Origin: Candidatus Woesebacteria bacterium GW2011_GWB1_39_10
Lineage (GTDB): Bacteria > Patescibacteriota > Microgenomatia > UBA8517
DNA length: 64,000 nt
Assembly: GCA_000993205.1 (NCBI GenBank)
Contig: LBVU01000002.1
Coordinates: forward strand, 117,079 to 181,078
Direction of reading: 5' to 3'
Part shown: in pieces, positions 3,194 through 57,720 of the stretch
Position numbering within the stretch: the stretch's first letter is position 1
How the letters are laid out: the number at the start of each line of letters is the position of its first letter
Notes under the pieces: model-generated
What the model saw: the letters and a program-made list of their open reading frames with translations, nothing else
Databases searched by the model: none
What the model was told of the DNA's origin: nothing
Position numbers and translations under genes: made by a program

Positions 3194-4375
3194 TCAGCTT
3201 CCGATTTTGAACTCAACCACATCTCCGTCGTGCATTATATAGTCCCGGCCCTCGCTCCTGACTTTGCCTTCCTCACGACAAACCTTCCACCCGCCTACGC
3301 CCGGCTTCGGCGAGGCAGGCCCTCCAATAAAGTCACTAAAATCACAAACATCAGCTTTAATAAATTTTTTAATAAAATCCGTATGAATTACACCGGCGGC
3401 TTCTTGGGCACTGATCCCAACCGGAATGGTCCAAGCCCTAACTTCCTTCTCCCCTGCCGTTAAAAATGTAATTAGGCCGAGGGTTTTAAAAGCTTTCTGG
3501 ATTAACCTCTCCAATCCCGATTTTTTAATTCCAAGATCCTCCATGTATATTTTTTGGTCATCGTTAGAAAGTTCCGCAAGCTCGCTTTCGGTTTTGGCGC
3601 AAATTGCCACAACTTGATCGGGATTTAACTTGAGCTTTTCGGCAAAAGAAATTTCCAGATCATGCGCGTTTGCTAAATCTTTCTCATCCACATTCATAAC
3701 GACAAGGACGGGCTTGATTGTCAAAAGTCCTAGTTCTTTGGCTATTTTCCTCTCCTCCTCTGATACATCGTTATATAACGATGTATCACTGGATAAAATT
3801 GTTTTTAATCTCTGAACTGCTTGCCAGCGATCTTTTAATTCTTTATCCGGGGTATTGCCTGGGTCTTTTTGTTTTTCTAAAGTTTGAAGATCGGCCAGCG
3901 CAAGTTCAGTATTTAAGACCTCAAAGTCGCTTACGGGATCTTTTACTCCCTGTTTTACAATATCAGGGTCGGTAAATGCGCGAAGAACAAAACAAATCGC
4001 ATTGGTTTCCCTAATATGGCTTAAAAATTTGTTTCCTAATCCCTCACCTTTGCTAGCCCCGGCGATGAGACCAGCTATATCTACGAATTCGACAGTTGCT
4101 GGAACAATGGGGATACTCGATACTCGATACTCGATACTGGGTGGTTTTTTGTCCCCGCTTAGTATCTTAGTATCTCTATATCCTAGTATCTCCGACTCGA
4201 CAACTTTTCTAAGTTGTTCGAGGCGGCCGTCCGGAACCGGTACAATCCCTATGTTTGGTTCAATCGTTGCGAACGGAAAGTTCGCCACGTACGCCTGCTG
4301 CTTTTTAAGCAAAGCGTTAAAAAGTGTGGACTTCCCAACGTTTGATAACCCTACAATTGCCACACTAAGACTCAT
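3194..4375 (-). CDS. ychF: ribosome-binding ATPase YchF (Obg-family GTPase) carrying an about 30-aa in-frame insertion
   Basis: MSLSVAIVGLSNVGKSTLFNAL G1 motif, C-terminal TGS-like region; insertion ESEILGYRDTKILSGDKKPPSIEYRVSSIPI encoded by repeat 4112-4190. Confidence 0.88.
   Translation of the reverse strand: MSLSVAIVGLSNVGKSTLFNALLKKQQAYVANFPFATIEPNIGIVPVPDGRLEQLRKVVESEILGYRDTKILSGDKKPPSIEYRVSSIPIVPATVEFVDIAGLIAGASKGEGLGNKFLSHIRETNAICFVLRAFTDPDIVKQGVKDPVSDFEVLNTELALADLQTLEKQKDPGNTPDKELKDRWQAVQRLKTILSSDTSLYNDVSEEERKIAKELGLLTIKPVLVVMNVDEKDLANAHDLEISFAEKLKLNPDQVVAICAKTESELAELSNDDQKIYMEDLGIKKSGLERLIQKAFKTLGLITFLTAGEKEVRAWTIPVGISAQEAAGVIHTDFIKKFIKADVCDFSDFIGGPASPKPGVGGWKVCREEGKVRSEGRDYIMHDGDVVEFKIGS
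4112..4190. repeat. Palindromic oligonucleotide repeat (GATACTC)x4 ... (AGTATCT)x3 inside ychF coding sequence, in frame
   Basis: gatactcgatactcgatactcgatact at 4112-4138 and inverse agtatcttagtatc..tagtatc at 4161-4190; same heptamer family at 18470-18498 and 57339-57367. Confidence 0.8.
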
Positions 4376-4436
4376 TTTTTAGCCTCCCTTTCTTGACTTC
4401 TTGGGTAAATAGACATATAATATCCTCAAATTGGCG

Positions 4437-8208: not shown

Positions 8209-9177
8209 TTAATGAAGTTTATGTCCATAATTAAGAGCTTTTACTCCATCTTTTGCTTCATTAATTTCTCTAAATGAAAGGAATAGAAAAATGCCGAGAA
8301 GTAAAAATGTGTTAACAGGCGCCAACCAAAAAGGATATTCGTTGCCAAAAGCCTCAAGAACCATTATTCCCCCAAGAAAACCTATTGAATACATCGCCCC
8401 GTTTTTGAGATATGCAAACTTGGTAATTAAATCAATTCCACGAACCGTAAACTCCCGAACAACGTATGCGCCCAAACCATTTCCTAAAATAATTAAAGGG
8501 ACTGAAAGTGTAAACGCAAATGCACCGATTACTCCATCAATCGAAAAACTTGCATCCAATATCTCTAAGAAAAGAATTTTGCTCAAAGCGCCCATATGAG
8601 AAGTCATTAGCTTCTCTTCTTCTTTTGCGGCATTCTTTTTAAATCCGTCTGTAATAAAAAATGCTGTCGCCCCGATTGATGCGGAAAGAGCCAAAATCGG
8701 ATGAAGATTTACAGAGAAATAAATAATCGCAGTTACGAAAACTGACGAGAGTGCATAAAACCAGATCGATGCTTTATGAATAAACCCCTCAACCAAAAAC
8801 GCGTATTTTTTTTCTTCGGTAAAAAGCCATGACAAAAAAACCAGAAAAAGATAAACTCCCCCACCAAGAAGTAAAATCGGTTTTGAAGCTTCCATTGATT
8901 TTTCCACTACTCCATCTTGCGCAAAAGAAGAACCAACGACCTGAATTAAAGTAAATTCAGGATTTGCAATCCAAACAATTAAAAATGGCAGTATCCCGCG
9001 TATTATAACTACCGCGAATATCAGTCCCCAAAACAAGAAGAATTTTTTATATTTTTCCGGGACCGTGGAGAGAACGTGTGCATTAACTATTGCATTATCA
9101 ATGGAAGAAACAGTCTCAAAAAGAGCAAGTCCGAAAATTACGATTATTGTATGCAAAACCATAAAACTATTATACAA
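8209..9177 (-). CDS. multi-pass integral membrane protein, possibly TerC/DUF475-like
   Basis: Multiple hydrophobic helices; SSIDNAIVNA motif reminiscent of the TerC family. Confidence 0.45.
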   Translation of the reverse strand: MYNSFMVLHTIIVIFGLALFETVSSIDNAIVNAHVLSTVPEKYKKFFLFWGLIFAVVIIRGILPFLIVWIANPEFTLIQVVGSSFAQDGVVEKSMEASKPILLLGGGVYLFLVFLSWLFTEEKKYAFLVEGFIHKASIWFYALSSVFVTAIIYFSVNLHPILALSASIGATAFFITDGFKKNAAKEEEKLMTSHMGALSKILFLEILDASFSIDGVIGAFAFTLSVPLIILGNGLGAYVVREFTVRGIDLITKFAYLKNGAMYSIGFLGGIMVLEAFGNEYPFWLAPVNTFLLLGIFLFLSFREINEAKDGVKALNYGHKLH

Positions 9178-10856
9178 TGAAATACATGAAGTTCGTCTTC
9201 GTGTCTGGTGGAGTTTTATCGGGCCTTGGAAAAGGGATTACTGCTTCAGCCCTTGCTCTTCTTCTCAAATCGCGCGGAATAAAAGTAACGCTAATGAAAT
9301 GTGATATGTATTTAAATATCGACGCAGGCACCATGAACCCCATGGAACACGGTGAAGTTTTTGTAACACACGACGGCCTGGAAACCGATCAAGACTTGGG
9401 ACATTACGAACGTTTTACGGGACTTACCCTTAACAAATCAAATTATCTAACCAACGGACAAATTTACAAAGTTGTTTTAGACAAGGAGCGGGCTCTGGGA
9501 TATGGAGGAATTTGTGTACAACCATATCACCACATTCCTCCCGAAATTATAAAAAGATGGAAAGAGGCTGGTGAAAAAAATAAAGCAGATGTTGTAATCG
9601 TTGAATTCGGCGGAACTGTTGGAGAATATGAAGGCCTCCTTTTTTATGAAGCATACCGGAGACTAAAGATGGAAAATCCGTCAGGTGTTTGTTTAATTCA
9701 TGTTGGTTACTTACCCGCACCGAATCACATTGGTGAACTTAAAAGCAAGCCCATGCAACAATCTATTATCAACCTTAATTCTCTTGGCGTTCAACCAGAC
9801 TTTATTGTTGGTCGAGCGGAAAATAACATTGACCTTAAAAGAAAAGAGAAAATTGCCTTTATCGCGGGACTTCCAATAGAAAACATTATTAGCAACCCCA
9901 ACTTATCATCTGTTTATCTACTTCCGGACAAACTTGAAAAAGAAAAATTGGCAGAAAAAGTAATTAAAAAACTACGTCTTGGAACCGGTAAATTAAATTT
10001 GAGCAAATGGCATGCCTTGATCAAAAAGATAGAAAAGGCCAATAAGGAAACCAATATCGCCATCGTTGGTAAGTATCAAAAAACCGGCGATTATATTCTG
10101 GAAGATACATATGTCAGCGTTATCGAAGCCCTAAAACACGCAGGATTTGAACTAGGAATTAAGCCAAAAATCACATGGATAGATTCCGAAGATTTTGATT
10201 ATAAGGAATTAAAAAATTTTGATGGGATTATTGTTCCTCAGGGTTGGGGCAAGCGCGGTGTTGAAGGGAAAATTAAAGCGGTTAAATTCGCCCGAGTTAA
10301 TAAAATTCCGTATTTGGGGCTTTGTTTTGGAATGCAAATGGCAGTTATAGAATTTGCAAGGACAGTCCTTGCAATGAAGGACGCAAATACAACTGAGGCA
10401 GATCCAAAAACAAATTGCCCGGTGATTCATGTAATGAACAATCAAAAAGAGTATCTGCTAAATAAACAATACGGTGGAACAATACGTCTTGGGGCCTGGC
10501 CGTGCAAATTAACCGGAGGGACAATTTTAGAAAAAGCCTACAAAAAATACGGAATGGACAAAGACGCCCCTTGGTTTGTGTCAAATACAAAGCACGAAGC
10601 ACGAAGCACGAAGACGGACATCGTTGTCTACGAAAGACATCGTCATAGATATGAGTTTAATAATAAATTCAAAGAAGAGTTTGAAAAAAATGGTTTTATA
10701 ATATCGGGGACTTCACCGGATGGAACATTGGTAGAAGCGATTGAGTTAGAAAACCATCCATTCTTTGTCGGTACGCAGTTTCATCCTGAATATATTAGTC
10801 GTCCGCTCTCCCCCCACCCAATATTTTTAGCGTTTGTTAAAGCATGTAAAAAATAA
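9177..10856 (+). CDS. pyrG: CTP synthase
   Basis: MKFVFVSGGVLSGLGKGITASAL N-terminus and C-terminal GATase domain (GLCFGMQ); contains in-frame KHEARSTK repeat insertion. Confidence 0.93.
   Translation: MKYMKFVFVSGGVLSGLGKGITASALALLLKSRGIKVTLMKCDMYLNIDAGTMNPMEHGEVFVTHDGLETDQDLGHYERFTGLTLNKSNYLTNGQIYKVVLDKERALGYGGICVQPYHHIPPEIIKRWKEAGEKNKADVVIVEFGGTVGEYEGLLFYEAYRRLKMENPSGVCLIHVGYLPAPNHIGELKSKPMQQSIINLNSLGVQPDFIVGRAENNIDLKRKEKIAFIAGLPIENIISNPNLSSVYLLPDKLEKEKLAEKVIKKLRLGTGKLNLSKWHALIKKIEKANKETNIAIVGKYQKTGDYILEDTYVSVIEALKHAGFELGIKPKITWIDSEDFDYKELKNFDGIIVPQGWGKRGVEGKIKAVKFARVNKIPYLGLCFGMQMAVIEFARTVLAMKDANTTEADPKTNCPVIHVMNNQKEYLLNKQYGGTIRLGAWPCKLTGGTILEKAYKKYGMDKDAPWFVSNTKHEARSTKTDIVVYERHRHRYEFNNKFKEEFEKNGFIISGTSPDGTLVEAIELENHPFFVGTQFHPEYISRPLSPHPIFLAFVKACKK
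10591..10613. repeat. Tandem heptamer (AGCACGA)x3 in frame inside pyrG
   Basis: agcacgaagcacgaagcacgaag read directly; encodes KHEARSTK. Confidence 0.75.
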
Positions 10857-12233: not shown

Positions 12234-13490
12234 CTATAAAGCTAGTAGTATTGAAGCAATTATCACCAATATCCCCACTCCGCCCGCAACAACTGTCGGC
12301 CAATCCGTACCCGTAACAGGAATTGGCCTGGGTGTTGAACTGGTTCCCGCTGAGGAGCCACTTGCAGTCCCTGTCGCGGTTGGTGTCGCAGTGGCAGTGG
12401 CGGTTGCTGTGGGAGTAGCCGTTGCTGTGGGAGTAGCTGTCGCGGTTGGTGTCGCAGTGGCAGTGGCGGTTGCTGTGGGAGTAGCCGTTGCTGTGGGAGT
12501 AGAAAGACATGTAATCGAAAAATTATCAAATTTTGCAGTAGTTGCTGGAAGTGGGTTGCCAGTTACCGGCATAGCAGCAAGACTGATAATCAAATCATCA
12601 GTTAGCGTGGTTGTAAAAACAATTAATTCTGTGAAAGTTGACGAGTTGGATAGTTTGTATGAAGTTGTAATTTTACCAGACTTTCTTTCGACCTTAAAGC
12701 TGACACTGTCAGTTCCATTAATTACCACAGATTTGTTTTGGTTGCCTGGAACAAAATTAACAGCCACATTATGCGCTTCTTGTTTAATATTTCTTCCAAC
12801 TGTAACTATTTTTGAACCATCTGGACTCACCAAAATAAGTGTTCCAGTAACCGCTCCTGTCCCCGTCTTAGTAAGAGCAGGCGCATCAAAAGTAATCACA
12901 AAATCTCCTGTTAAATATTTGGTACTGGTTATTTTAGATCCAGTTTGTTGCCCAGAAGTTACATCGAGAACCAACTGACCAGAAGACACTTTTGCATCCC
13001 CGACCTTACTCCATTTAGCAGAATCAATTGTGCTATCAAAACTATCAGAAAAGTTGTCTGAACAAGTCATACTTCCAGTTGGCCCCGGAGTTGGGGTCGC
13101 GGCAGCGCACTCAGTCATATCTTTGGTCCAAGCTCCGTTAAGTGACGGGCAGCAATATTGACTCCCTCCACATGATCCTATCCTACCGACTCGGTTACAA
13201 AGCTGTTCGTCCGGAGATCCATCGGCCTGGGCAGGGGTACAATTTCTTAAATGCGAAGGCGCCCCCGTGACAGGACACTGCTCGGCAGTAGGACAAGTTG
13301 TAGTCTGGGCCTTCTCTTGAATATTCTGTCTTTGACGCACAAGAAGTACTCCAGCAACAACACTAAGGATTAAAAAAACAACAATTAAAAAAGTCACTAT
13401 GATCCCCTTTTTTCCAAAACTCTTCTTCTTTGTTGAGGTTACTATTTCAAACGGAGAGGTTGTTTGCTTGTTAAGATTTTGGTCAGGCAT
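12234..13490 (-). CDS. cell-surface protein: N-terminal signal anchor, Cys-rich module, jelly-roll (LamG/ConA-like) segment, Pro-Thr-Ala repeat linker, C-terminal IPVTG plus hydrophobic anchor
   Basis: N-terminal TM IIVTFLIVVFLILSVVAGVLLV; (PTATAT)n repeats; C-terminus PIPVTGTDWPTVVAGGVGILVIIASILLAL resembles an LPXTG-type sorting signal. Confidence 0.6.
   Translation of the reverse strand: MPDQNLNKQTTSPFEIVTSTKKKSFGKKGIIVTFLIVVFLILSVVAGVLLVRQRQNIQEKAQTTTCPTAEQCPVTGAPSHLRNCTPAQADGSPDEQLCNRVGRIGSCGGSQYCCPSLNGAWTKDMTECAAATPTPGPTGSMTCSDNFSDSFDSTIDSAKWSKVGDAKVSSGQLVLDVTSGQQTGSKITSTKYLTGDFVITFDAPALTKTGTGAVTGTLILVSPDGSKIVTVGRNIKQEAHNVAVNFVPGNQNKSVVINGTDSVSFKVERKSGKITTSYKLSNSSTFTELIVFTTTLTDDLIISLAAMPVTGNPLPATTAKFDNFSITCLSTPTATATPTATATATATPTATATPTATATPTATATATATPTATGTASGSSAGTSSTPRPIPVTGTDWPTVVAGGVGILVIIASILLAL
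12340..12510. repeat. DNA-level tandem repeat (about 66-bp unit x2 plus partials) encoding the PT/AT-rich linker
   Basis: gttgctgtgggagtagccgttgctgtgggagtagctgtcgcggttggtgtcgcagtggcagtggcg repeated. Confidence 0.7.
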
Positions 13491-14933: not shown

Positions 14934-14965
14934 AATTGTAAATTGTAAATTGTAAATTGTAAATT
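14934..14965. repeat. Intergenic tandem octamer (AATTGTAA)x4
   Basis: aattgtaaattgtaaattgtaaattgtaaatt; reverse-complement copy caatttacaatttacaatttacaa at 39589-39612. Confidence 0.8.
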
Positions 14966-18276: not shown

Positions 18277-18882
18277 CTATAGTTCGCGGCGGCCTTCTAA
18301 GGCTTGGGTCAGAGTTGTCTCATCAGCATATTCTAAATCTGCTCCCGTTGGAATCCCCATCCCCAGGCGCGTAATTTTTAATTTTAAATTATTAATTTTT
18401 AATTGCTTGCCGAGGTACATGGCGGTAGCATTCCCTTCCATTGTGGGGTTTGTAGCAATAATTAGTTCAGATACTGGATACTCGATACTAGATACTCGCT
18501 TCAGTAAATCGTCAATATATAGTTCATCCGGGCCTATATTTTCCAATGGATTAATCGCCCCATGAAGAACATGATAAACACCTTTAAAATGAGTTCTTTC
18601 GAACGCAAGAATATCTAGGGGTTGCTCTACTACCATCACTAACGATTTGTCCCGCATCGGGTCTGTGCAAATCGGACAAGGGTCGTCCTCACTAATATTT
18701 TTGCAAATTGAACAAAGTTTTGTGTTTTTCTTCAAATTTAGGATTGAATCGGCAAACTCATCGAGTTGGACTTGAGGAACATGCAAAAGATAATAAGTAA
18801 GGCGCTGAGCGCTTTTTGGCCCGATACCAGGAAGCTTGCTAAAAGATTCAATTAGAGCGGTAATGGGACGAGCTATTTTCAT
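18277..18882 (-). CDS. recR: recombination protein RecR
   Basis: C4 zinc finger CSICKNISEDDPCPIC and Toprim LIIATNPTMEGNATAMYL; dnaX-ybaB-recR context. Confidence 0.92.
   Translation of the reverse strand: MKIARPITALIESFSKLPGIGPKSAQRLTYYLLHVPQVQLDEFADSILNLKKNTKLCSICKNISEDDPCPICTDPMRDKSLVMVVEQPLDILAFERTHFKGVYHVLHGAINPLENIGPDELYIDDLLKRVSSIEYPVSELIIATNPTMEGNATAMYLGKQLKINNLKLKITRLGMGIPTGADLEYADETTLTQALEGRREL
18470..18498. repeat. GATACT(G/C/A) heptamer tandem x4 in frame inside recR
   Basis: gatactggatactcgatactagatactcg; encodes ...SSIEYPVSE... Confidence 0.75.
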
Positions 18883-19619: not shown

Positions 19620-21062
19620 TTAATTCCCAAATATCTCTTCTGCAACCTTGATTATATCCTTATCCTTTCCTTCAGTCAAAATTGGTTCAATTTTTGTCTC
19701 TTCAATTATTTTTTTAGCCGGAGGCTCAACCAATGTACAAACGACTCTCGTGGGCGACTGTAAAACTCTGGCAACTATATTCTCTAAAACCTGTCTGTGC
19801 TGTGTATCTTCCAAGCGTTCTTTATGAAATTTGTAATAAACTCCCAAGGTCAGAGTTTTACCATCATAAGCCACTGGGCGAGCAGCCCGAAGTAACGCTT
19901 CGATTGAGGCATTTATTGGTTTTATTGAAGACAAAATAGTATTCCAAATCTCTCCTTCAACCTCCATATTTTCGACAGCCGCCTCAACTGTTTCTACAAC
20001 TTCCTCGACAGAAGTCTTGTCTCCCATGTCCCCACTCTTAGTTATCAGTTCTTCGTTCTTAGTTTCACCTCCACACCATTTTATTACGGCGATCTCGAGT
20101 GGTAATTCTTCGATAGGCGAGTCGGGTACTTGTCGGTTGGCCTCAATCAGGAGTTCTGCCAAAACTATCAGTTCGCGATTTTCTGAAATATCCAAGATAA
20201 TATTTTTGTGTATTTCAATTAGAGCCTGCTTAAGTATTCCTTCGGCACCCGCACCTGCCTCAACTGCGTTCTTAATGTAATTAAGGGCATTATGCAGATT
20301 TTTCTTGTATAGAAAACCGACAAACTCATCTACCCCCTGCGCTTTGCCTTTTTCCAAAAAATTATTACCTTCAACACTAACCTGCTCTAAAAGCTTTACC
20401 GCGTCCCTAAACGATCCGTTGGCGGCGCCGGCGATATCTTCCAAAGTTTTTGGATCAAAATCGAGTTTTTCCCCTTTAATCACACGTGTTAAAGATTGCC
20501 GGATTTCTTCAGAGCTTGCTTTCCTGAACCTGATAAATGTTGTCCTCGACCGGATTGTATCAATAAGTTTTTCCGGATTTGTTGTTGCTAAAATAAAAAC
20601 TACGTGTTCCGGGGGTTCCTCAATGGTTTTGAGAAGTGCATTACTGGCCTCAGTTGTTAACATGTGAGCCTCATCAATAATATATACTTTTTTATTCGCT
20701 TTTACCGGGGAGAGTTTGACGACGTCTCTTAGTGTTCTTACATCATCAATTCCACGGTGAGAAGCGGCATCCATTTCAATTACATCCAAATTATTACCTT
20801 TTGTTACGGAAACACATTGTTCACACTTATCACAAGGTTCATAGCTTTTCACTTTTAGCTTTTCACTTTTAGCTATCTCCTCACAGTTTATTATCTTTGC
20901 CATTATTCTCGCCGCGGAAGTTTTGCCTGTCCCTTTTGGCCCGGCGAATAAGAAAGCATGAGGAATTTTGCCCGAACTTACGATCTTTTTTAATGACTCA
21001 CGAACCTCAGGCAAGTCAAGTTCATCTAAATTATTTGAACGGTATTTTAGATAGAGAGTCAT
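19620..21062 (-). CDS. dnaX: DNA polymerase III subunit gamma/tau
   Basis: AAA+ Walker A GPKGTGKTSAARI, zinc module CEEIA..CDKCEQC; contains in-frame KSEKLKVKS insertion. Confidence 0.92.
   Translation of the reverse strand: MTLYLKYRSNNLDELDLPEVRESLKKIVSSGKIPHAFLFAGPKGTGKTSAARIMAKIINCEEIAKSEKLKVKSYEPCDKCEQCVSVTKGNNLDVIEMDAASHRGIDDVRTLRDVVKLSPVKANKKVYIIDEAHMLTTEASNALLKTIEEPPEHVVFILATTNPEKLIDTIRSRTTFIRFRKASSEEIRQSLTRVIKGEKLDFDPKTLEDIAGAANGSFRDAVKLLEQVSVEGNNFLEKGKAQGVDEFVGFLYKKNLHNALNYIKNAVEAGAGAEGILKQALIEIHKNIILDISENRELIVLAELLIEANRQVPDSPIEELPLEIAVIKWCGGETKNEELITKSGDMGDKTSVEEVVETVEAAVENMEVEGEIWNTILSSIKPINASIEALLRAARPVAYDGKTLTLGVYYKFHKERLEDTQHRQVLENIVARVLQSPTRVVCTLVEPPAKKIIEETKIEPILTEGKDKDIIKVAEEIFGN
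20843..20873. repeat. Tandem repeat (CTTTTCACTTTTAG)x2 inside dnaX, reverse complement of the AAAGTGAAAAG family
   Basis: agcttttcacttttagcttttcacttttagc; encodes AKSEKLKVKS in dnaX. Confidence 0.75.
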
Positions 21063-23735: not shown

Positions 23736-24824
23736 TTACTTAACAATGCTTTTCAGGAATCCGTCTATACTTCCTGCTATCACCAGCCTCCGAATATCTC
23801 CTACCGTGATTAAAAGAATAAGTGCTAAAAGAATTATCATTCCGATTGTATGAACTATTGCCTCCACCTTAGGGATAATTTTTTTACCGATGATCGTTTC
23901 TATCACGATAAACAGCAGACGCCCGCCATCCAACGCCGGAAAAGGAAGAATGTTTAAAATGGCCAAATTTACGGACAAAACTCCGACAAAATTAATTAAC
24001 GTTATGATTCCATTTTTTGCAGCCTCGGTTGTCACTGCAAATATCCCTACCGGCCCGCTAACGTCCGTCGGGACGTCTCCTTGCCATAAGCCATAAGCCA
24101 TATGCCATAAACCAGACAGTATTGTTCGTCCCCAGAAAAACGCGTCTTTAAATCCGTAATAAATTCCGTAAAAAGGTCTCTGCCAAACAGGTGGAAAATA
24201 AATTTCAGTTGAGGTGATGGTTACACCTAAAGGCCCCTCTCCGGCAGGCGGACTAACCCTTGGGGTTACGGTAATCTTACCTTTTTCGGTCTCAATAATA
24301 ACTTTTTGCCCTTTTTTGGCATCAACATTTTTTATAAAGCTATTAACATCGGTTACATCTTTTCCGTCAACTTTATTGATAACATCCCCCACAACCAGAC
24401 CGGACGAAATCGCCGGAGAATTTGCGGAAATATCTACTACTTTTATTTGATGGGTGTCTTTTGGAATTCCGGTAAATGAGTAAACTATAGCAAAAGCAAC
24501 AACGGCCAAAGCGAAATTCATGATGACTCCGGCAACAACAACGGAAGTTCTCACACTTTTGCTTTTATTAAGAAAGGCGCGTTTGGGATCGGTAATTCCA
24601 CCTTCCTCTTGTTCGCCATGAAGGCGGACAAATCCACCGAAAGGAAGAGCGTTTACAGAATAAATTGTTTCCCCTATTTTTTTGCCAAATAAACGGGGGG
24701 GGAGTCCAAAACCAAATTCCTCGACCCAAATTCCGGCACGCCTGGCCATTACAAAATGGCCAAGTTCATGAACTAAGATTAGGACTGAGAGGACAAGGAG
24801 AAAAATTAATATCGAAACAAGCAT
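23736..24824 (-). CDS. rseP: RIP zinc metalloprotease RseP (M50 site-2 protease with PDZ)
   Basis: HELGHFVMAR zinc motif, PDZ segment, multiple TM helices; contains in-frame (GCCATAA) repeat. Confidence 0.88.
   Translation of the reverse strand: MLVSILIFLLVLSVLILVHELGHFVMARRAGIWVEEFGFGLPPRLFGKKIGETIYSVNALPFGGFVRLHGEQEEGGITDPKRAFLNKSKSVRTSVVVAGVIMNFALAVVAFAIVYSFTGIPKDTHQIKVVDISANSPAISSGLVVGDVINKVDGKDVTDVNSFIKNVDAKKGQKVIIETEKGKITVTPRVSPPAGEGPLGVTITSTEIYFPPVWQRPFYGIYYGFKDAFFWGRTILSGLWHMAYGLWQGDVPTDVSGPVGIFAVTTEAAKNGIITLINFVGVLSVNLAILNILPFPALDGGRLLFIVIETIIGKKIIPKVEAIVHTIGMIILLALILLITVGDIRRLVIAGSIDGFLKSIVK
24083..24113. repeat. Tandem repeat (GCCATAA)x3-4 in frame inside rseP
   Basis: gccataagccataagccatatgccataaacc; encodes repeated (M)AYGLW. 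Confidence 0.7.
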
Positions 24825-38406: not shown

Positions 38407-40524
38407 ATGATTAAATTACAAAAAATTATTTTCATTCTTTTTGCAATTCTTTTTTTCTTCGTTCCTTTAGTTTTGTGGCCGTATACATCTGAAGTTTTTG
38501 AATTTAACAAAATAGTCTTGGTATACATATTTACGGTTTTGATAGTTGCCGCATGGTTTGCAAGGACTGTCCTTGCACAAAAGATAATATTTCGTCGCAC
38601 AATATTAGATATACCACTTTTGGCATTTTTAGCTTCGCAATTTAGCTCAACCATTCTTTCGATAGACCCATCAACTTCTTGGTTGGGATATTATTCCAGG
38701 TTTAACGGCGGACTGCTTTCTACTATTTCCTATTCCCTACTTTATTGGGCCTTCGTTTCCAACTTAGACCGAAAACACGCCCTATATACTATATATTATA
38801 TACTTGCCTCCGCCTCGCTTGCTTCTGTTTACGGCGTATTAGAGCACTTCGGCATCGATAAAGCCCTCTGGGTTCAGGATGTTGCTTCCCGTGTATTTTC
38901 TACTCTTGGACAGCCGAATTGGCTGGCGGCGTTCCTCGTCGCGCTCCTGCCTATTACATGGGCTTTGGCGCTCACAAGATTCCAGATTCCACAACGAAGT
39001 TGGTTACGTAATTCCAGATTCTTGATACATTTCTTGCTTTCGATCCTATTTTTTTGGACATTAATATTTACCAAATCAAGATCGGGGCTTTTAGGATTTG
39101 GTGTAGCATTTCCGATTTTTTGGATGGGATATTTTTGGCTAAACCGAAAAAGTTTCTTGAAATGTCTTTCCCCTTTTGCCATTATTAGTTCTTCACTATT
39201 AATTATTAGTTTAATTTCCGGTACTCAATATACTCCCAACCTATATAACTTCTTAATTAAAACCAATAAAGGCTTGCCGGCCGAAACCCTGGTGAAGGCT
39301 GGGCCGGCTCTTGAAGTCGGTGGAACCGAGTCCGGTACTATCCGGAAAATCGTATGGCGCGGGGCTATCGAAATATGGAAACAGTACCCGATTTTTGGAA
39401 CAGGCGTCGAAACTTTTGCTTTTTCTTACTACCAATTTAGGCCCGTCGAACACAATTTAGTCTCCGAATGGGATTTTATTTACAACAAAGCACACAATGA
39501 GTACCTTAATCTCGCAGCCAATACAGGTAGTTTTGGATTAATTGCCTATTTAGTTCTTGTTAGTTTCTCGATATATCAAATGATTAAGAATTTACAATTT
39601 ACAATTTACAATTTACAAACAAATTCTAAGTTTGAAAATTTCAAAAATGAAAATTTATTGAAAATTGGTAATTGGAAATTGGTAATTCTCGGCCTCTTGG
39701 CCGGTTATACAAGTCTTCTCGTAACCAATTTTTTTGGTTTTTCGGTCGTTCCAACCCAACTCCAGTTATTTTTATTTCCGGCGATAGCGATTATTTTAGC
39801 TAAAAGTGAAGAGGTAAAAGTGAAAAGTGAAACGATAAATACCAATCAAAAAGTTCTAATTCTTATAACGCTCTTAGTTCTTAGTTATTCGCTTTTCGTT
39901 ATCGGCAAATATTGGTATTCCGATACTCTTTATGCCAAAGGTAAGGGATATAACAGCATTCAACGACCGGATGCCGCCATCAACTATTTAGTCCGGGCTA
40001 CTAATATGAAACCCAACCAACCACTATTTCACAGTGAGTTGGCAAACTCATACGCGGCCATGGCGCTTGCTCTTTATAACCAGAAAGACATAAATGGATC
40101 TAAAAAGTATGTCGATTTGGCAATTAGCGAATCAGACAAATCTGTTACCCTTTCTGCCTCTATGCTGAATTTAAAAAGATCGCGTTTTGGAGTATTCGTA
40201 GTGCTTTCAACTATAAATCCGAACCATCTTCTTATTGCCCAAGAAACTTTAATTGATGCTATAACATTTGCTCCAACCGATGCAAAACTTTATTACAATT
40301 TAGGTCTGACCTACGCAAGAACCGGCCAACCGGACCGCGCAATTGAAATTCTAATTAAAACAATCGGTTTAAAAGCCAATTACAGAGACGCAAGGCTTGC
40401 ATATGCATATCTCTTAATTGACAAGAACAAGAACACTGAGGCAAAAGAACAACTCGGATATATTCTTAAATCTATCGACCCCAACGATTCACTTGCCAAA
40501 CAGGCGCTTGAGAGCATCAAATAA
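38407..40524 (+). CDS. O-antigen ligase (Wzy_C) family membrane protein with C-terminal TPR repeats
   Basis: RKIVWRGAIEIWKQYPIFGTGVETF matches the R..W....P.GxGxG.F ligase motif; about 10 TM helices; TPR-like C-terminus; contains three in-frame oligo repeats. Confidence 0.75.
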   Translation: MIKLQKIIFILFAILFFFVPLVLWPYTSEVFEFNKIVLVYIFTVLIVAAWFARTVLAQKIIFRRTILDIPLLAFLASQFSSTILSIDPSTSWLGYYSRFNGGLLSTISYSLLYWAFVSNLDRKHALYTIYYILASASLASVYGVLEHFGIDKALWVQDVASRVFSTLGQPNWLAAFLVALLPITWALALTRFQIPQRSWLRNSRFLIHFLLSILFFWTLIFTKSRSGLLGFGVAFPIFWMGYFWLNRKSFLKCLSPFAIISSSLLIISLISGTQYTPNLYNFLIKTNKGLPAETLVKAGPALEVGGTESGTIRKIVWRGAIEIWKQYPIFGTGVETFAFSYYQFRPVEHNLVSEWDFIYNKAHNEYLNLAANTGSFGLIAYLVLVSFSIYQMIKNLQFTIYNLQTNSKFENFKNENLLKIGNWKLVILGLLAGYTSLLVTNFFGFSVVPTQLQLFLFPAIAIILAKSEEVKVKSETINTNQKVLILITLLVLSYSLFVIGKYWYSDTLYAKGKGYNSIQRPDAAINYLVRATNMKPNQPLFHSELANSYAAMALALYNQKDINGSKKYVDLAISESDKSVTLSASMLNLKRSRFGVFVVLSTINPNHLLIAQETLIDAITFAPTDAKLYYNLGLTYARTGQPDRAIEILIKTIGLKANYRDARLAYAYLLIDKNKNTEAKEQLGYILKSIDPNDSLAKQALESIK
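39589..39687. repeat. In-frame tandem repeats (CAATTTACAA)x3 and (GAAATTGGTAATTG)x2 inside the O-antigen ligase-like gene
   Basis: aatttacaatttacaatttacaaa 39589-39612 and gaaaattggtaattggaaattggtaattc 39654-39687. Confidence 0.75.
39798..39832. repeat. AAAGTGAAAAG-family tandem repeat in frame (encodes EEVKVKSET)
   Basis: agctaaaagtgaagaggtaaaagtgaaaagtgaaa. Confidence 0.75.
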
Positions 40525-57051: not shown

Positions 57052-57720
57052 TTTGTTGAGCCAAGTGGCGACGAAGGCTTTCCTGTGCAATTTAGTCGCT
57101 CCATATTTTTTGATGGCATTTTGGTGTTCTTTTGTCCCATACCCTTTGTTTTTACCCCATTTGTAAACTCTAAATTTTGGATTTTTGGAGATTTTTACCA
57201 TTAGTTTATCCCGATAGACTTTGGCGACAATTGAGGCTGCTGCGATTGAAATCGATTTCGTATCCCCTTTAATAATGGCCTTTTGGTTTTTTCTTCTTAG
57301 ACTCCTTACGTAAGGTATGAAGAAGGCGTCAATGAGTAGATACTCGATACTGGATACTTTGATACTCACACTTTTGATCGCTTTACGGAAAGCTATTTCT
57401 GAGGCTTTTTTTATCCCAAACCGATTTATTTGTGCCACACTTGCCTGTCCGATTCCAATCGCAAGTGCATTTTGCCGTATCCATTTATCTGCAACTTTCC
57501 TCTGTCTTGGAGTAAGTTGTTTTGAGTCGTTGATAATTATTTTGCGATTACCTTTCAAGACCGTGTCTTTAAAGGTGGTTATAGTATTTCTGTCAAAGAC
57601 AACACATCCTGCCACAATTGCGCCGGCAAAACAGCCTCTACCTACCTCATCCATACCGGCAACAACCTTAAAACCTTTATTCCACAGCTTCTTTTCAAAG
57701 GAGAAATCCGGAAGTGTCAT
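57028..57720 (-). CDS. rnhB: ribonuclease HII
   Basis: VAGMDEVGRGCFAGAIVAGCVVF catalytic N-terminus; contains in-frame SSIEYLLID insertion and KVKSEK tail. Confidence 0.88.
   Translation of the reverse strand: MTLPDFSFEKKLWNKGFKVVAGMDEVGRGCFAGAIVAGCVVFDRNTITTFKDTVLKGNRKIIINDSKQLTPRQRKVADKWIRQNALAIGIGQASVAQINRFGIKKASEIAFRKAIKSVSIKVSSIEYLLIDAFFIPYVRSLRRKNQKAIIKGDTKSISIAAASIVAKVYRDKLMVKISKNPKFRVYKWGKNKGYGTKEHQNAIKKYGATKLHRKAFVATWLNKLKVKSEK
57339..57367. repeat. GATACT(C/G/T) heptamer tandem x4 in frame inside rnhB
   Basis: gatactcgatactggatactttgatactc. Confidence 0.75.

Follow-up and report, generated by a model that had tools for sequence, protein, structure and literature searches.

The pyrG and rseP arrays

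The stretch analysed here, referred to as the window, is 64 kb of the genome of a groundwater bacterium of the Woesebacteria (CPR), and all counts of period-7 arrays given below refer to it. Two of its genes, pyrG and rseP, carry a short tandem array of a 7-base unit inside the reading frame. The genes, their arrays and the hosting loop of PyrG are located as follows.

9177..10856, forward strand: pyrG, CTP synthase, 559 aa (ORF, translation, Pfam)
10545..10622, forward strand: lineage-specific hypervariable loop of PyrG, residues 457-482, which hosts the array (ortholog and structure alignment)
10590..10613, forward strand: perfect (AAGCACG)x3.4 array in pyrG (TRF, period 7, 100% match)
23736..24824, reverse strand: rseP-type site-2 protease, Peptidase_M50 plus one PDZ domain, 362 aa (ORF, translation, Pfam)
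24083..24114, reverse strand: heptanucleotide array (GCCATAA)x4 in rseP, with one mismatch (TRF, period 7, 4.6 copies, 88% match)

PyrG comprises the Pfam domains CTP_synth_N (residues 5-268) and GATase (residues 308-555), and its homologs carry the name CTP synthase and come from Candidatus Woesebacteria. The array is read in the pyrG frame as K472-HEARST-K479, the very peptide (KHEARSTK) named in the original prediction. However, it does not lie near the start of the GATase domain, where it had been placed, but at residues 472-479, at 84% of the gene length. A degenerate fourth unit, AAGACG, extends it to 27 bases, which correspond to nine codons.

RseP contains Peptidase_M50 (residues 8-335) and PDZ (residues 124-182) domains, and its homologs are annotated as regulator of sigma E protease or as site-2 protease. 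On the coding strand its array reads TTATGGC ATATGGC TTATGGC TTATGGC and encodes G238-LWHMAYGLWQ-G249, at 66% of the gene length. Three to four such units had been predicted, together with a duplicated AYGLW segment; the array is there, but GLW alone recurs (GLW-HMAY-GLW). Neither the pyrG nor the rseP pattern occurred once in 100 dinucleotide-preserving shuffles.

Host sites and comparison with orthologs

The 26 residues of the PyrG loop directly precede the conserved ERHRHRYEFN motif. Only two residues stand opposite them in the solved CTP synthase structure 3nva, and some Woesebacteria orthologs are devoid of the loop. Among the homologs, the length from PWF to ERHRHRYE ranges from 13 to 39 aa. 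In the ortholog comparison, the loop measures 18 aa, a length shared exactly with the closest orthologs (P0002-P0004 and P0006, 84-85% identity). A megablast search of the ortholog locus L081 against the window gave no match; the pyrG genes were compared by codon alignment. In this alignment the array falls within the 10 most diverged codons of the gene, with 23 of 30 bases differing as against a mean of 7.5. The loop DNA of the orthologs L081 and L220 shows no 7-base periodicity, and we found no relative bearing the pyrG array.

In RseP, the anchors FWG and SGPVG are separated by 23 residues. Of 120 listed homologs, 114 showed both anchors, and 112 of these have the same spacing. The close orthologs are all 362 aa long and align without any gap. 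Furthermore, the family consensus already reads GLWxxxxGLF, so that GLW and GLF stand at a spacing of seven residues. No other 30-base stretch of the gene is as diverged as the array, where 18 bases differ from L094, the nearest complete-genome relative, against a mean of 5.6. At 81% nucleotide identity L094 lacks the array, whereas L097, at 86%, retains it with one synonymous difference which still fits a unit variant. The rseP array is therefore old and fixed: it predates the split to 86% DNA identity and is not recent.

Since the lengths of both proteins are unchanged at these sites, the 7-base periodicity appears to have been imposed on existing sequence. Judged by the alignments, neither array represents a net insertion relative to the orthologs. 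For pyrG, a deletion may have offset an insertion, because the loop length varies across the family. Both arrays occupy the most variable stretch of their gene, and the tolerance invoked in the original prediction thus fits well.

Stability across assemblies

The exact PyrG protein was recovered on 16 contigs, and so was the exact RseP protein; these contigs differ in sample, assembler and project (ENA, JGI, Logan, NCBI). Over the pyrG array, five of six fetched assemblies are free of mismatches and the sixth carries a single one, with no gap at the array. Compared with the window as a whole, 10 of 12 fetched assemblies are mismatch-free, and the other two carry one and five substitutions at unmapped positions. 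No gap was observed at any period-7 array which the fetched assemblies cover, and all cluster members covering the array sites encode the same peptide.

No copy-number polymorphism of the pyrG and rseP arrays was seen in these consensus assemblies of essentially one population, so the comparison of copy number across strains that had been proposed yielded, at this level, no length variants at either array. Other copy-number alleles were also sought in metagenomes with the left flank of the pyrG array plus its first unit, and nothing was found. The draft GW2011_GWA2_40_7 is exceptional in that its pyrG is short of 123 bases, which include the array and the conserved ERHRHRYEFN motif. At the consensus level, the two arrays are identical in many independent assemblies and are thus not artefacts; they are real and stable. 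The ‘active’ expansion suggested at the outset finds no support in 16 contigs for each protein, in gap-free assemblies, or in the age of the rseP array. The divisibility by three of total array length, which had also been put forward as a test, carries no information: it is a change in length, and not the total, which must be a multiple of three.

A period-7 excess in the window

The pyrG and rseP arrays do not stand alone. The window holds 17 period-7 arrays, against 1.3 expected from dinucleotide shuffles. Shuffling codons within genes leaves 2.4 arrays (maximum 4), a figure which still counts three gene-end arrays that remain largely intact under this shuffle. No enrichment was detected in the window at the other periods considered (5, 6 and 8-15). 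As observed over these 64 kb, the two focal arrays are members of a period-7-specific, genome-wide excess.

Fourteen of the 17 arrays lie wholly within predicted ORFs, and the remaining three are at, straddle or adjoin gene ends. ORFs make up 92% of the window in a greedy longest-ORF map, so this distribution indicates that coding sequence is not avoided. Array-bearing genes include ychF, recR, dnaX, topA, rnhB, pyrG, rseP and an O-antigen-ligase/TPR gene. The expectation of many frame-keeping arrays in conserved genes was therefore correct; the accompanying idea that repeats colonise these genes by insertion or expansion does not hold for pyrG and rseP, the lengths of which are unchanged.

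Some heptamers recur within the window, namely GAGTATC (in ychF, recR and rnhB), AATTTAC (twice) and the AAAAGTG family (several genes), whereas AAGCACG and GCCATAA each occur in a single array. Outside the arrays, autocorrelation revealed no elevation of matches at lag 7, which means that the underlying process yields discrete arrays; a pervasive low-level signal of 7-base templating was rejected on the same ground.

The excess is also present in some other CPR lineages. Across a panel of CPR and non-CPR loci, array density ranges from 0 to 0.7 per kb. The panel was assembled by a PyrG search of genome contigs, which returned no close relative (68% identity at best) and served for this purpose only.

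Concerted evolution of the recR array

Five further arrays of the window inform on how such repeats change.

18372..18404, reverse strand: heptanucleotide array in recR, residues about 160-171, encoding QLKINNLKLKI (TRF)
14934..14965, reverse strand: (AATTGTA)x4.6 array touching the end of a 182-aa ORF after its stop codon, upstream of cysS (TRF, 100% match)
4110..4142, reverse strand: ychF array, coding-strand unit GAGTATC, encoding SIEYRVSSIP (TRF)
18469..18498, reverse strand: recR linker array, NGATACT x4, of the ychF/GAGTATC unit family, encoding RVSSIEYPVSE (TRF)
20842..20874, reverse strand: dnaX array of 14 bases (2 x 7), encoding KSEKLKVKSY (TRF, 100% match)

The recR array at residue 160 consists of five orthologous units and, by codon alignment, has equal length in three species. 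Its unit consensus differs between them: CAATTAA-like in the window, CAGTTAA in L097 and AAAGTCA-like in L094. Within a genome, 5.2-5.9 of 7 bases are identical between units, as against 3.2-5.0 of 7 between orthologous units. In addition, the differences between species fall preferentially at equivalent positions of the units (p = 3e-4 and 2e-3). These positions rotate through all three codon positions, and selection at the protein level therefore cannot yield the pattern. The units change together, which suggests that the DNA itself is homogenised in a 7-base register, with selection on frame and length sieving the outcomes.

The same pattern of unit replacement is seen at the orthologous intergenic array before cysS, where L094 has a 4-unit array with the unit ATTCGAA in place of TTTACAA. 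In dnaX, the array peptide is kept in all three species compared, and L094 differs by C/T in each of the two repeat copies.

Other members of the class do change in length. The ychF array is a net insertion: the L220 ortholog shows a gap of 10 residues, within a loop which in the window exceeds its counterpart by 19 residues. An inverted GATACT array at 4158-4191 is the pairing partner of the ychF array, and the composite folds as a hairpin (z -2.5). The recR linker which holds the array at 18469-18498 differs in length among the three species, and such differences at array sites also exist in the dnaX linker and in the C-terminal ends of S2 and yqeY.

Relation to known heptanucleotide repeats

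Many prokaryotic genomes contain an excess of heptanucleotide simple sequence repeats (SSRs), for which slippage of the polymerase across its contact of about 7 nt has been suggested as a hypothetical cause (Mrazek et al. 2007, as summarised in PMC4679880 and PMC4692102). Known heptamers include the cyanobacterial STRR, GGGAATC of Xanthomonas and TAACTGA of Beggiatoaceae (PMC4679880, PMC4692102). As these papers describe them, the SSRs resemble our arrays in their head-to-tail 7-base units, typically in 2-6 copies, in the specificity of the excess for period 7, in its restriction to some lineages and in the presence of several unit families per genome. In contrast, STRR, TAACTGA and GGGAATC are, in the same papers, predominantly intergenic, whereas most arrays of the window lie wholly in predicted ORFs, essential genes included. 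Moreover, the units seen in the window are many and AT-rich, with some recurrent families, and may differ in this from SSRs with one dominant motif.

Length variation between close relatives, as expected of an SSR, was not found at the pyrG, rseP and recR (residue 160) arrays; the ychF array and the recR linker do vary. A full-text literature search returned no paper tying heptamers to CPR names, and nothing relevant on heptamer repeats of CPR/Patescibacteria. The heptanucleotide-SSR literature examined likewise gave no description of length-neutral concerted evolution within an ORF. The heptanucleotide excess as such is already known; what we describe is its CPR variant, which lies mostly within genes.

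Origin of the arrays

We consider it fairly probable that the pyrG and rseP arrays result from DNA-level copying in a 7-base register, in place and without change of length, and that they themselves are probably without function. Copying of this kind would repeatedly overwrite a unit with its neighbour, possibly through strand slippage or template switching when DNA is replicated or undergoes short-patch repair. In essential genes, the surviving variants would be those which keep the frame, avoid stop codons and retain an acceptable loop length. Arrays would thus settle, with no net change of length, in the stretches most tolerant to mutation. For PyrG, the host site would be the lineage-specific surface loop. 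For RseP, it would be the variable GLWxxxxGLF stretch, in which two in-phase seeds 21 bases apart presumably pre-existed. Once fixed, arrays could persist for long as ordinary coding sequence.

Simple slippage adds or removes whole units; the length-neutral conversion step, and any enzyme acting as a 7-base ruler, are postulates of this scheme. The concerted evolution documented here concerns recR and one intergenic array rather than the two focal arrays. That pyrG and rseP acquired theirs by the same homogenising process is our inference, as are its molecular nature and the arrays' lack of function.

A recent net insertion or expansion is the first alternative. Slippage in blocks of three units, or the arrival of ready-made arrays of 21-30 bases, would keep the frame and could be tolerated. 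The ychF array, of the same class, adds 10 residues relative to its ortholog, and here the original idea of insertion is confirmed. The length differences in the recR and dnaX linkers and at the S2 and yqeY C-termini, the variable length of the PyrG loop across its family and the nine codons spanned by the pyrG array with its degenerate unit are also in keeping with such events. However, for the two focal genes we regard this origin as unlikely. The anchor spacing of RseP is nearly invariant and its close orthologs align gap-free, the PyrG loop is exactly as long as in the closest orthologs, the rseP array is common to genomes separated by 14% DNA divergence, and the assemblies contain not one copy-number variant.

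An ectopic or mobile origin, in which gene conversion or a tiny mobile element from loci with the same heptamer replaced the resident sequence, seems less probable still. Precedents for repetitive DNA in tolerant protein loops are in-frame palindromic insertions: the palindromic elements of Rickettsia and, in heterocystous cyanobacteria, very small dispersed repeats. Our arrays are similar to both in their location and in the preservation of frame, and the composite inverted array of ychF, with its hairpin, resembles them. The recurrence of GAGTATC, AATTTAC and AAAAGTG in unrelated genes of the window would also suit this origin. Unlike these elements, the pyrG and rseP arrays bring no net insertion, have no inverted partner in the window and are single-copy there. 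Furthermore, predicted RNA/DNA structure at the pyrG array is no better than in shuffles (z -0.9), so that hairpin potential is missing, and the rseP array rests on resident GLW and GL(F/W) codons which are conserved in orthologs.

Metagenome matches were considered in the same context. (AAGCACG)x3 matches more than 120 unrelated contigs, some with several copies, in a search made without a control heptamer. Their GC content of 32-71% signifies unrelated organisms and not one shared element. The matches show AAGCACG to be a common unit which ORFs can accommodate; on the pyrG locus itself they are uninformative. Part of the array class may nevertheless stem from insertion or ectopic copying and not from local homogenisation, given the recurrence of units in unrelated genes and the net insertion in ychF, which has a partner for a hairpin.

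It is very improbable that no DNA-level process was involved and that codon usage, chance or selection for a 7-residue periodic peptide, such as a helix face of RseP, produced the arrays. The AT-rich genome has biased codons, and RseP orthologs already display the 7-residue, hence 21-base, spacing of GLWxxxxGLF. A peptide repeat, however, accounts for a period of 21 bases and not of 7, codon shuffles yield far fewer arrays than observed, and the exact focal patterns never appear in shuffles. Together with the recR substitutions, which follow unit positions through all codon positions, the shuffles refute codon usage, chance and peptide selection as a full explanation.

We find it scarcely credible that the arrays are phase-variable contingency loci, acting as frameshift switches in the manner of neuO of E. 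coli K1. The neuO repeat, carried by the CUS-3 prophage, numbers 3-53 copies and differs both among strains and within them, frequently leaving the gene out of frame; translation requires a copy number divisible by three (PMC13001214). With it our arrays share a 7-base unit inside an ORF, a frame which depends on copy number, so that a change by one unit shifts it, and a 7-residue periodic peptide (PMC13001214). Unlike neuO, the arrays of the window have 3.4-4.6 copies, are invariant in consensus assemblies and reside in housekeeping genes. The focal ones count 3.4 and 4 units, against commonly about 20 in neuO (PMC13001214), and a unit variant interrupts that of rseP. Copy number is the same in every assembly, and that of rseP is shared by the relative at 86% DNA identity. 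Contingency loci are typified by a long array near the 5′ end of an accessory, surface or modification gene, and pyrG and rseP, with their short and late arrays, depart from this; out-of-frame copy-number alleles are absent from the consensus assemblies.

An assembly error in which a repeat was collapsed or expanded, as the 123 bases missing from the 2015 draft GW2011_GWA2_40_7 might suggest, can practically be dismissed, given arrays of 24-32 bases (below read length), the agreement among independent assemblies described above and the presence of the rseP array in an independent species.

Implications

Taken alone, the finding is modest: both repeats are small, fixed and located in variable loops of housekeeping enzymes, and nothing suggests that they are functional or unstable. 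We believe its value lies in a clean example of a CPR period-7 excess which is mostly inside genes, with one orthologous array evolving in concert across species. It offers a comparative handle on why long prokaryotic SSRs favour 7-base units. Orthologous intragenic arrays are informative in this respect because selection fixes their length, so that only a homogenising process can act. On the practical side, such arrays cause local bursts of amino-acid change in CPR protein families, and these resemble misalignments or hypervariable regions.

A broader reading, which we put forward tentatively and with more doubt than conviction, is that some CPR lineages (this Woesebacteria clade and Peregrinibacteria/Peribacteria-like ones) possess an unusually active 7-base templated copying or conversion which rewrites loops of essential proteins in place. 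If this were true, one base change would spread to neighbouring units and alter three codons at once. This would constitute a distinct mutational mode, generating rapid peptide novelty without indels. The distribution among lineages could then expose the ruler, be it the replisome or a repair enzyme, behind the long-noted heptanucleotide excess of prokaryotes.

Heptamer arrays in pyrG and rseP

The stretch derives from a Candidatus Woesebacteria (CPR/Patescibacteria) genome of the Rifle aquifer; its PyrG has exactly the sequence of KKQ92478.1 and its RseP that of KKQ92493.1, both from Woesebacteria GW2011_GWB1_39_10. Both genes carry a tandem array with a 7-base unit, called by Tandem Repeats Finder (TRF) as follows (window positions).

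9177-10856, plus strand: pyrG (CTP synthase), ORF of 559 aa
10590-10613, plus strand: pyrG array, unit AAGCACG, period 7, 3.4 copies, 100% match
23736-24824, minus strand: rseP, ORF of 362 aa
24083-24114, minus strand: rseP array, unit GCCATAA, period 7, 4.6 copies, 88% match

The pyrG array is read in frame as AAG CAC GAA GCA CGA AGC ACG AAG, which gives K472-H-E-A-R-S-T-K479. These residues fall in the last third of the GATase domain (residues 308-555, Pfam) and not near its start, where the original prediction had placed them. On the coding strand of rseP, the units TTATGGC ATATGGC TTATGGC TTATGGC encode G238-L-W-H-M-A-Y-G-L-W-Q-G249, a peptide of the form GLW-HMAY-GLW rather than the duplicated AYGLW formerly read there. 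That both in-frame arrays are real and non-random is confirmed by the TRF calls and by shuffling: 100 shuffled versions of the window with dinucleotide content preserved contained neither pattern, and the observation made from the sequence was therefore correct.

A period-7 excess in the window

When arrays of at least three copies and at least 85% match are counted, the window contains 17 with period 7 against 1.3 in dinucleotide shuffles, while periods 5, 6 and 8-15 stay at the shuffle expectation. Codon shuffling within genes, which keeps the codon usage and amino-acid composition of each predicted gene, yields 2.4 period-7 arrays (maximum 4), a residual that includes three gene-end arrays largely untouched by the procedure. 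Outside the arrays, lag-7 matches are unremarkable (0.261 versus 0.254-0.263 at nearby lags not divisible by 3), so discrete arrays make up the signal. A greedy longest-ORF map assigns 92% of the window to ORFs; 14 of the 17 arrays are wholly contained in predicted ORFs, and each of the remaining three straddles a gene end or adjoins one.

The hosts include ychF, recR (two arrays), topA (two), rnhB, pyrG, rseP, a D-Ala-D-Ala-ligase-like gene and an O-antigen-ligase/TPR gene with four; arrays in dnaX are listed by TRF and fall outside the count of the stricter scan. The O-antigen-ligase (Wzy_C)/TPR gene (38407-40524) harbors the densest cluster of the window, with at least four separate arrays (38781, 39583, 39662 and 39812), plus 39872. 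As counted over the 64-kb window, the two focal arrays are part of a genuine genome-wide pattern. Of the interpretation placed on them, about half is supported, namely tolerance and a repeat process at the DNA level; insertion or expansion at pyrG and rseP and ongoing instability find no support.

Stability across assemblies

Assembly artefacts had been named beforehand as the refuting outcome, and the arrays proved identical on many contigs from different samples and assemblers, so they are not artefacts. The exact PyrG and exact RseP proteins are each present on 16 contigs (ENA, JGI, Logan, NCBI). Twelve of these loci, fetched for comparison, align to the window gap-free over all period-7 arrays that they cover, ten of them without mismatch, one (L086) with a single mismatch and one (L089) with five. 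Within the 90% protein clusters, every member covering the focal sites has the same PyrG or RseP peptides. Copy-number polymorphism, which a comparison of strains was to reveal, did not appear at the level of consensus assemblies: no period-7 array changes length among the 12 fetched loci that cover it.

The only length variant among assemblies is a 66-base perfect tandem duplication (12371-12502). It lies in a predicted membrane-anchored protein of 418 aa, in a tail rich in Thr, Ala and Pro; two copies are found in the window and in the loci L082, L084 and L085, one copy in L083, L086 and L096. In the last of these (GW2011_GWA2_40_7, LBZO01000031.1, a 2015 draft), pyrG is short of 123 bases (41 codons) at 4300-4420. 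The gap takes out the heptamer array together with the conserved ERHRHRYEFN motif, and its junction shows no obvious repeat. Given the 16 intact copies, it is likely a draft-assembly error or a defective allele.

Replacement of resident sequence

The pyrG array sits within a 26-residue loop (residues 457-482), opposite which the solved CTP synthase 3nva has 2 residues and which is entirely missing from some Woesebacteria orthologs. Measured from PWF to ERHRHRYE, loop length is 13-39 residues among homologs; the 18 residues of the window equal those of the closest orthologs (P0002-P0004 and P0006, 84-85% identity). The gene diverges most from the pyrG of a relative (locus L081, 85% amino-acid identity) over the 10 codons where the array lies (23/30 differences versus a mean of 7.5), and the two align there without a gap. 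The 7-base periodicity is absent at this site from the ortholog DNAs of L081 and L220, and no carrier was found among the relatives searched. In other Woesebacteria, the PyrG homologs P0037, P0030 and P0036 have repetitive peptides in the PWF-ERHRHRYE loop, e.g. QNTNLKQILNLKSQIL, and to judge from these the loop may be an independent host of repeat arrays in other lineages.

For rseP, spacing was measured between the anchors FWG and SGPVG, both of which are present in 114 of the 120 listed homologs. It amounts to 23 residues in the window and in 112 of these 114, and every one of the closest RseP orthologs has 362 aa. The homolog consensus at the array site is GLW-x-I-x-x-GLF-x-G. Codon by codon, comparison with the syntenic locus L094 of the complete Woesebacteria genome CP066686.1 (88% amino-acid, 81% nucleotide identity) shows zero gaps, and nowhere else in the gene do 30 bases diverge as far as at the array (18 differences versus a mean of 5.6). 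The array is absent from L094 and is carried by P0248, the RseP of a second related lineage (locus L097; 92% protein, 86% DNA identity), as TTATGGC ATATGGC ATATGGC TTATGGC. The sole difference from the window, GCT to GCA, is synonymous and makes unit 3 the other unit variant. Because it is common to the window and L097, the array is older than a split of ~14% DNA divergence, and its copy number has not changed from then on. Between rseP and the tRNA synthetase gene, the L097 lineage has an inserted hypothetical gene whose length differs by 18 bases in two assemblies of that lineage (L097 11434-12165, 243 aa; L098 11434-12147, 237 aa).

Since loop and spacing lengths match those of orthologs and the arrays lie at divergence maxima, sequence comparison indicates that neither array is an insertion: in pyrG and rseP the periodicity took the place of native sequence without altering its length, at the point where each protein is least constrained. 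The proposed tolerance is borne out by this location, and the proposed insertion or expansion finds no length gain relative to the closest orthologs.

Insertion or ectopic copying is accordingly an improbable source of the focal arrays; we keep it as an outside chance because part of the heptamer class may spread in this manner. Relative to the ortholog of L220, the ychF array (GAGTATC x4 on the coding strand, encoding SIEYRVSSIP) adds a net 10 residues, within a G-domain loop that is 19 residues longer in the window. Its partner, an inverted GATACT array, lies 20 bases off and the pair folds as a long imperfect hairpin (z -2.5). The extra DNA (4105-4200, minus strand) combines an 8-base array of GATACTAA with an inverted 7-base array of AGTATCG and resembles a very small palindrome inserted in frame. 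Coding-strand GAGTATC arrays occur in three unrelated genes, ychF (4110-4142), recR (18469-18498) and rnhB (57337-57359), with similar peptides (SIEYRVSSIP, RVSSIEYPVSE and KVSSIEYL), a recurrence that favours a common source, or else a preference for this sequence. The focal arrays, in contrast, have no second array of their own unit in the window. As inserted palindromic elements they fail the tests, with no net insertion, inverted partner or structure; as neuO-type contingency loci they also fail, being short and invariant.

Concerted evolution in a 7-base register

A recR array at about residues 160-171 is common to three syntenic genomes (the window, L097 and L094), with equal length and in native RecR sequence. 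The units are as follows.

Window: CAATTAA AAATTAA TAATTTA AAATTAA AAATTAC
L097: CAGTTAA CAGTTAA CAGTCAA CAGTTAA CAGTGAC
L094: AAAGTCA AAATTCA AAATGCA AAAGTCA AAATTAG

Units resemble each other more within a genome (5.2-5.9 of 7 bases) than orthologous units do (3.2-5.0 of 7). The window and L097 differ at 12 bases of the array, nearly all of them in unit position 1 or 3, and this clustering by position is supported by permutation (p = 3e-4 for window/L097, p = 2e-3 for L097/L094). The peptide changes from KLKINNLKLKI (window) to QLTVNSQQLTV (L097). Selection at the protein level cannot account for the pattern, since from one unit to the next each unit position moves through codon positions 1, 2 and 3. 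Right after the stop codon of a 182-aa ORF, an intergenic array reads TTTACAA x4 in the window and ATTCGAA x4 at the same site of L094. Both sites show concerted evolution in a 7-base register at constant length. In dnaX, a perfect 14-base (2 x 7) array (20842-20874) encodes KSEKLKVKSY, within an extension of DnaX that separates the NCE motif from the PC motif; the peptide is kept in all three species. In L094, each of the two copies has a C to T change, at corresponding positions, which is weak evidence alone.

Other lineages and known heptamer repeats

Among 80 pyrG loci of other species, those labelled CPR contain 0.139 arrays per kb versus 0.019 for the others. The CPR density is uneven, from 0 in many loci to 0.37-0.70 per kb in several contigs labelled Peregrinibacteria, Peribacteria or Patescibacteria; these values, above that of the window, belong to L018, L025, L026, L043 and L068, across which the AT-rich units CTTAAGA, AAGCTTA, GAAATCA and AATTTAC recur. 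The pyrG unit AAGCACG has no stop codon in the three frames of both strands. Arrays of at least three such units are common on unrelated metagenome contigs, 72% of them within an open frame of 450 nt or longer. It follows that heptamer arrays inside genes are probably widespread and too little described, and not unique to this genome. Several separate (AAGCACG)n arrays per contig are seen in metagenome loci of GC ~0.39-0.43 (L107, L138, L124, L130, L133, L100 and L122). L107 has five in 14 kb, and AAGCACG is the dominant unit family in such genomes.

An excess of heptanucleotides among long SSRs of many prokaryotes was described in a 2007 report, as relayed by PMC4679880 and PMC4692102. Examples are cyanobacterial STRR, G-rich repeats of Xanthomonas and Nostoc and TAACTGA in Beggiatoaceae, described as chiefly intergenic and of unknown origin (PMC4679880, PMC4692102). 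In neuO, a long hypervariable heptanucleotide repeat in coding sequence acts as a switch, read through only at copy numbers that are multiples of 3 (PMC13001214). The window arrays share the tandem 7-base units and the period-specific excess. Unlike the known repeats, they are mostly intragenic, in essential genes, short and invariant, and some at least keep their length while their units evolve in concert. In open-access full text, no paper was found that connects heptamer repeats with CPR lineages. The heptanucleotide SSR excess is already known, and the arrays are a mostly intragenic CPR form of it.

Proposed origin and significance

The arrays are most likely without function, and we lean, with some reserve, towards reading them as footprints of a homogenising process in 7-base register acting in tolerant loops. 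The pyrG and rseP arrays would then have been produced by the same process that is seen in recR and at the intergenic site. In rseP, the conserved GLW and GL(F/W) codons provide two in-phase seeds at a distance of exactly 21 bases, and two more units would have filled the intervening 14 bases. Candidates for the molecular step are transient slippage with realignment, template switching or short-patch conversion. For the 7-base ruler, PMC4679880 and PMC4692102 offer a single hypothesis, namely that ~7 nt is the polymerase contact length.

The two focal arrays are modest in themselves, and greater weight lies on the concerted, length-neutral evolution, a behaviour which opens the question ‘why seven?’ to testing by comparative genomics.
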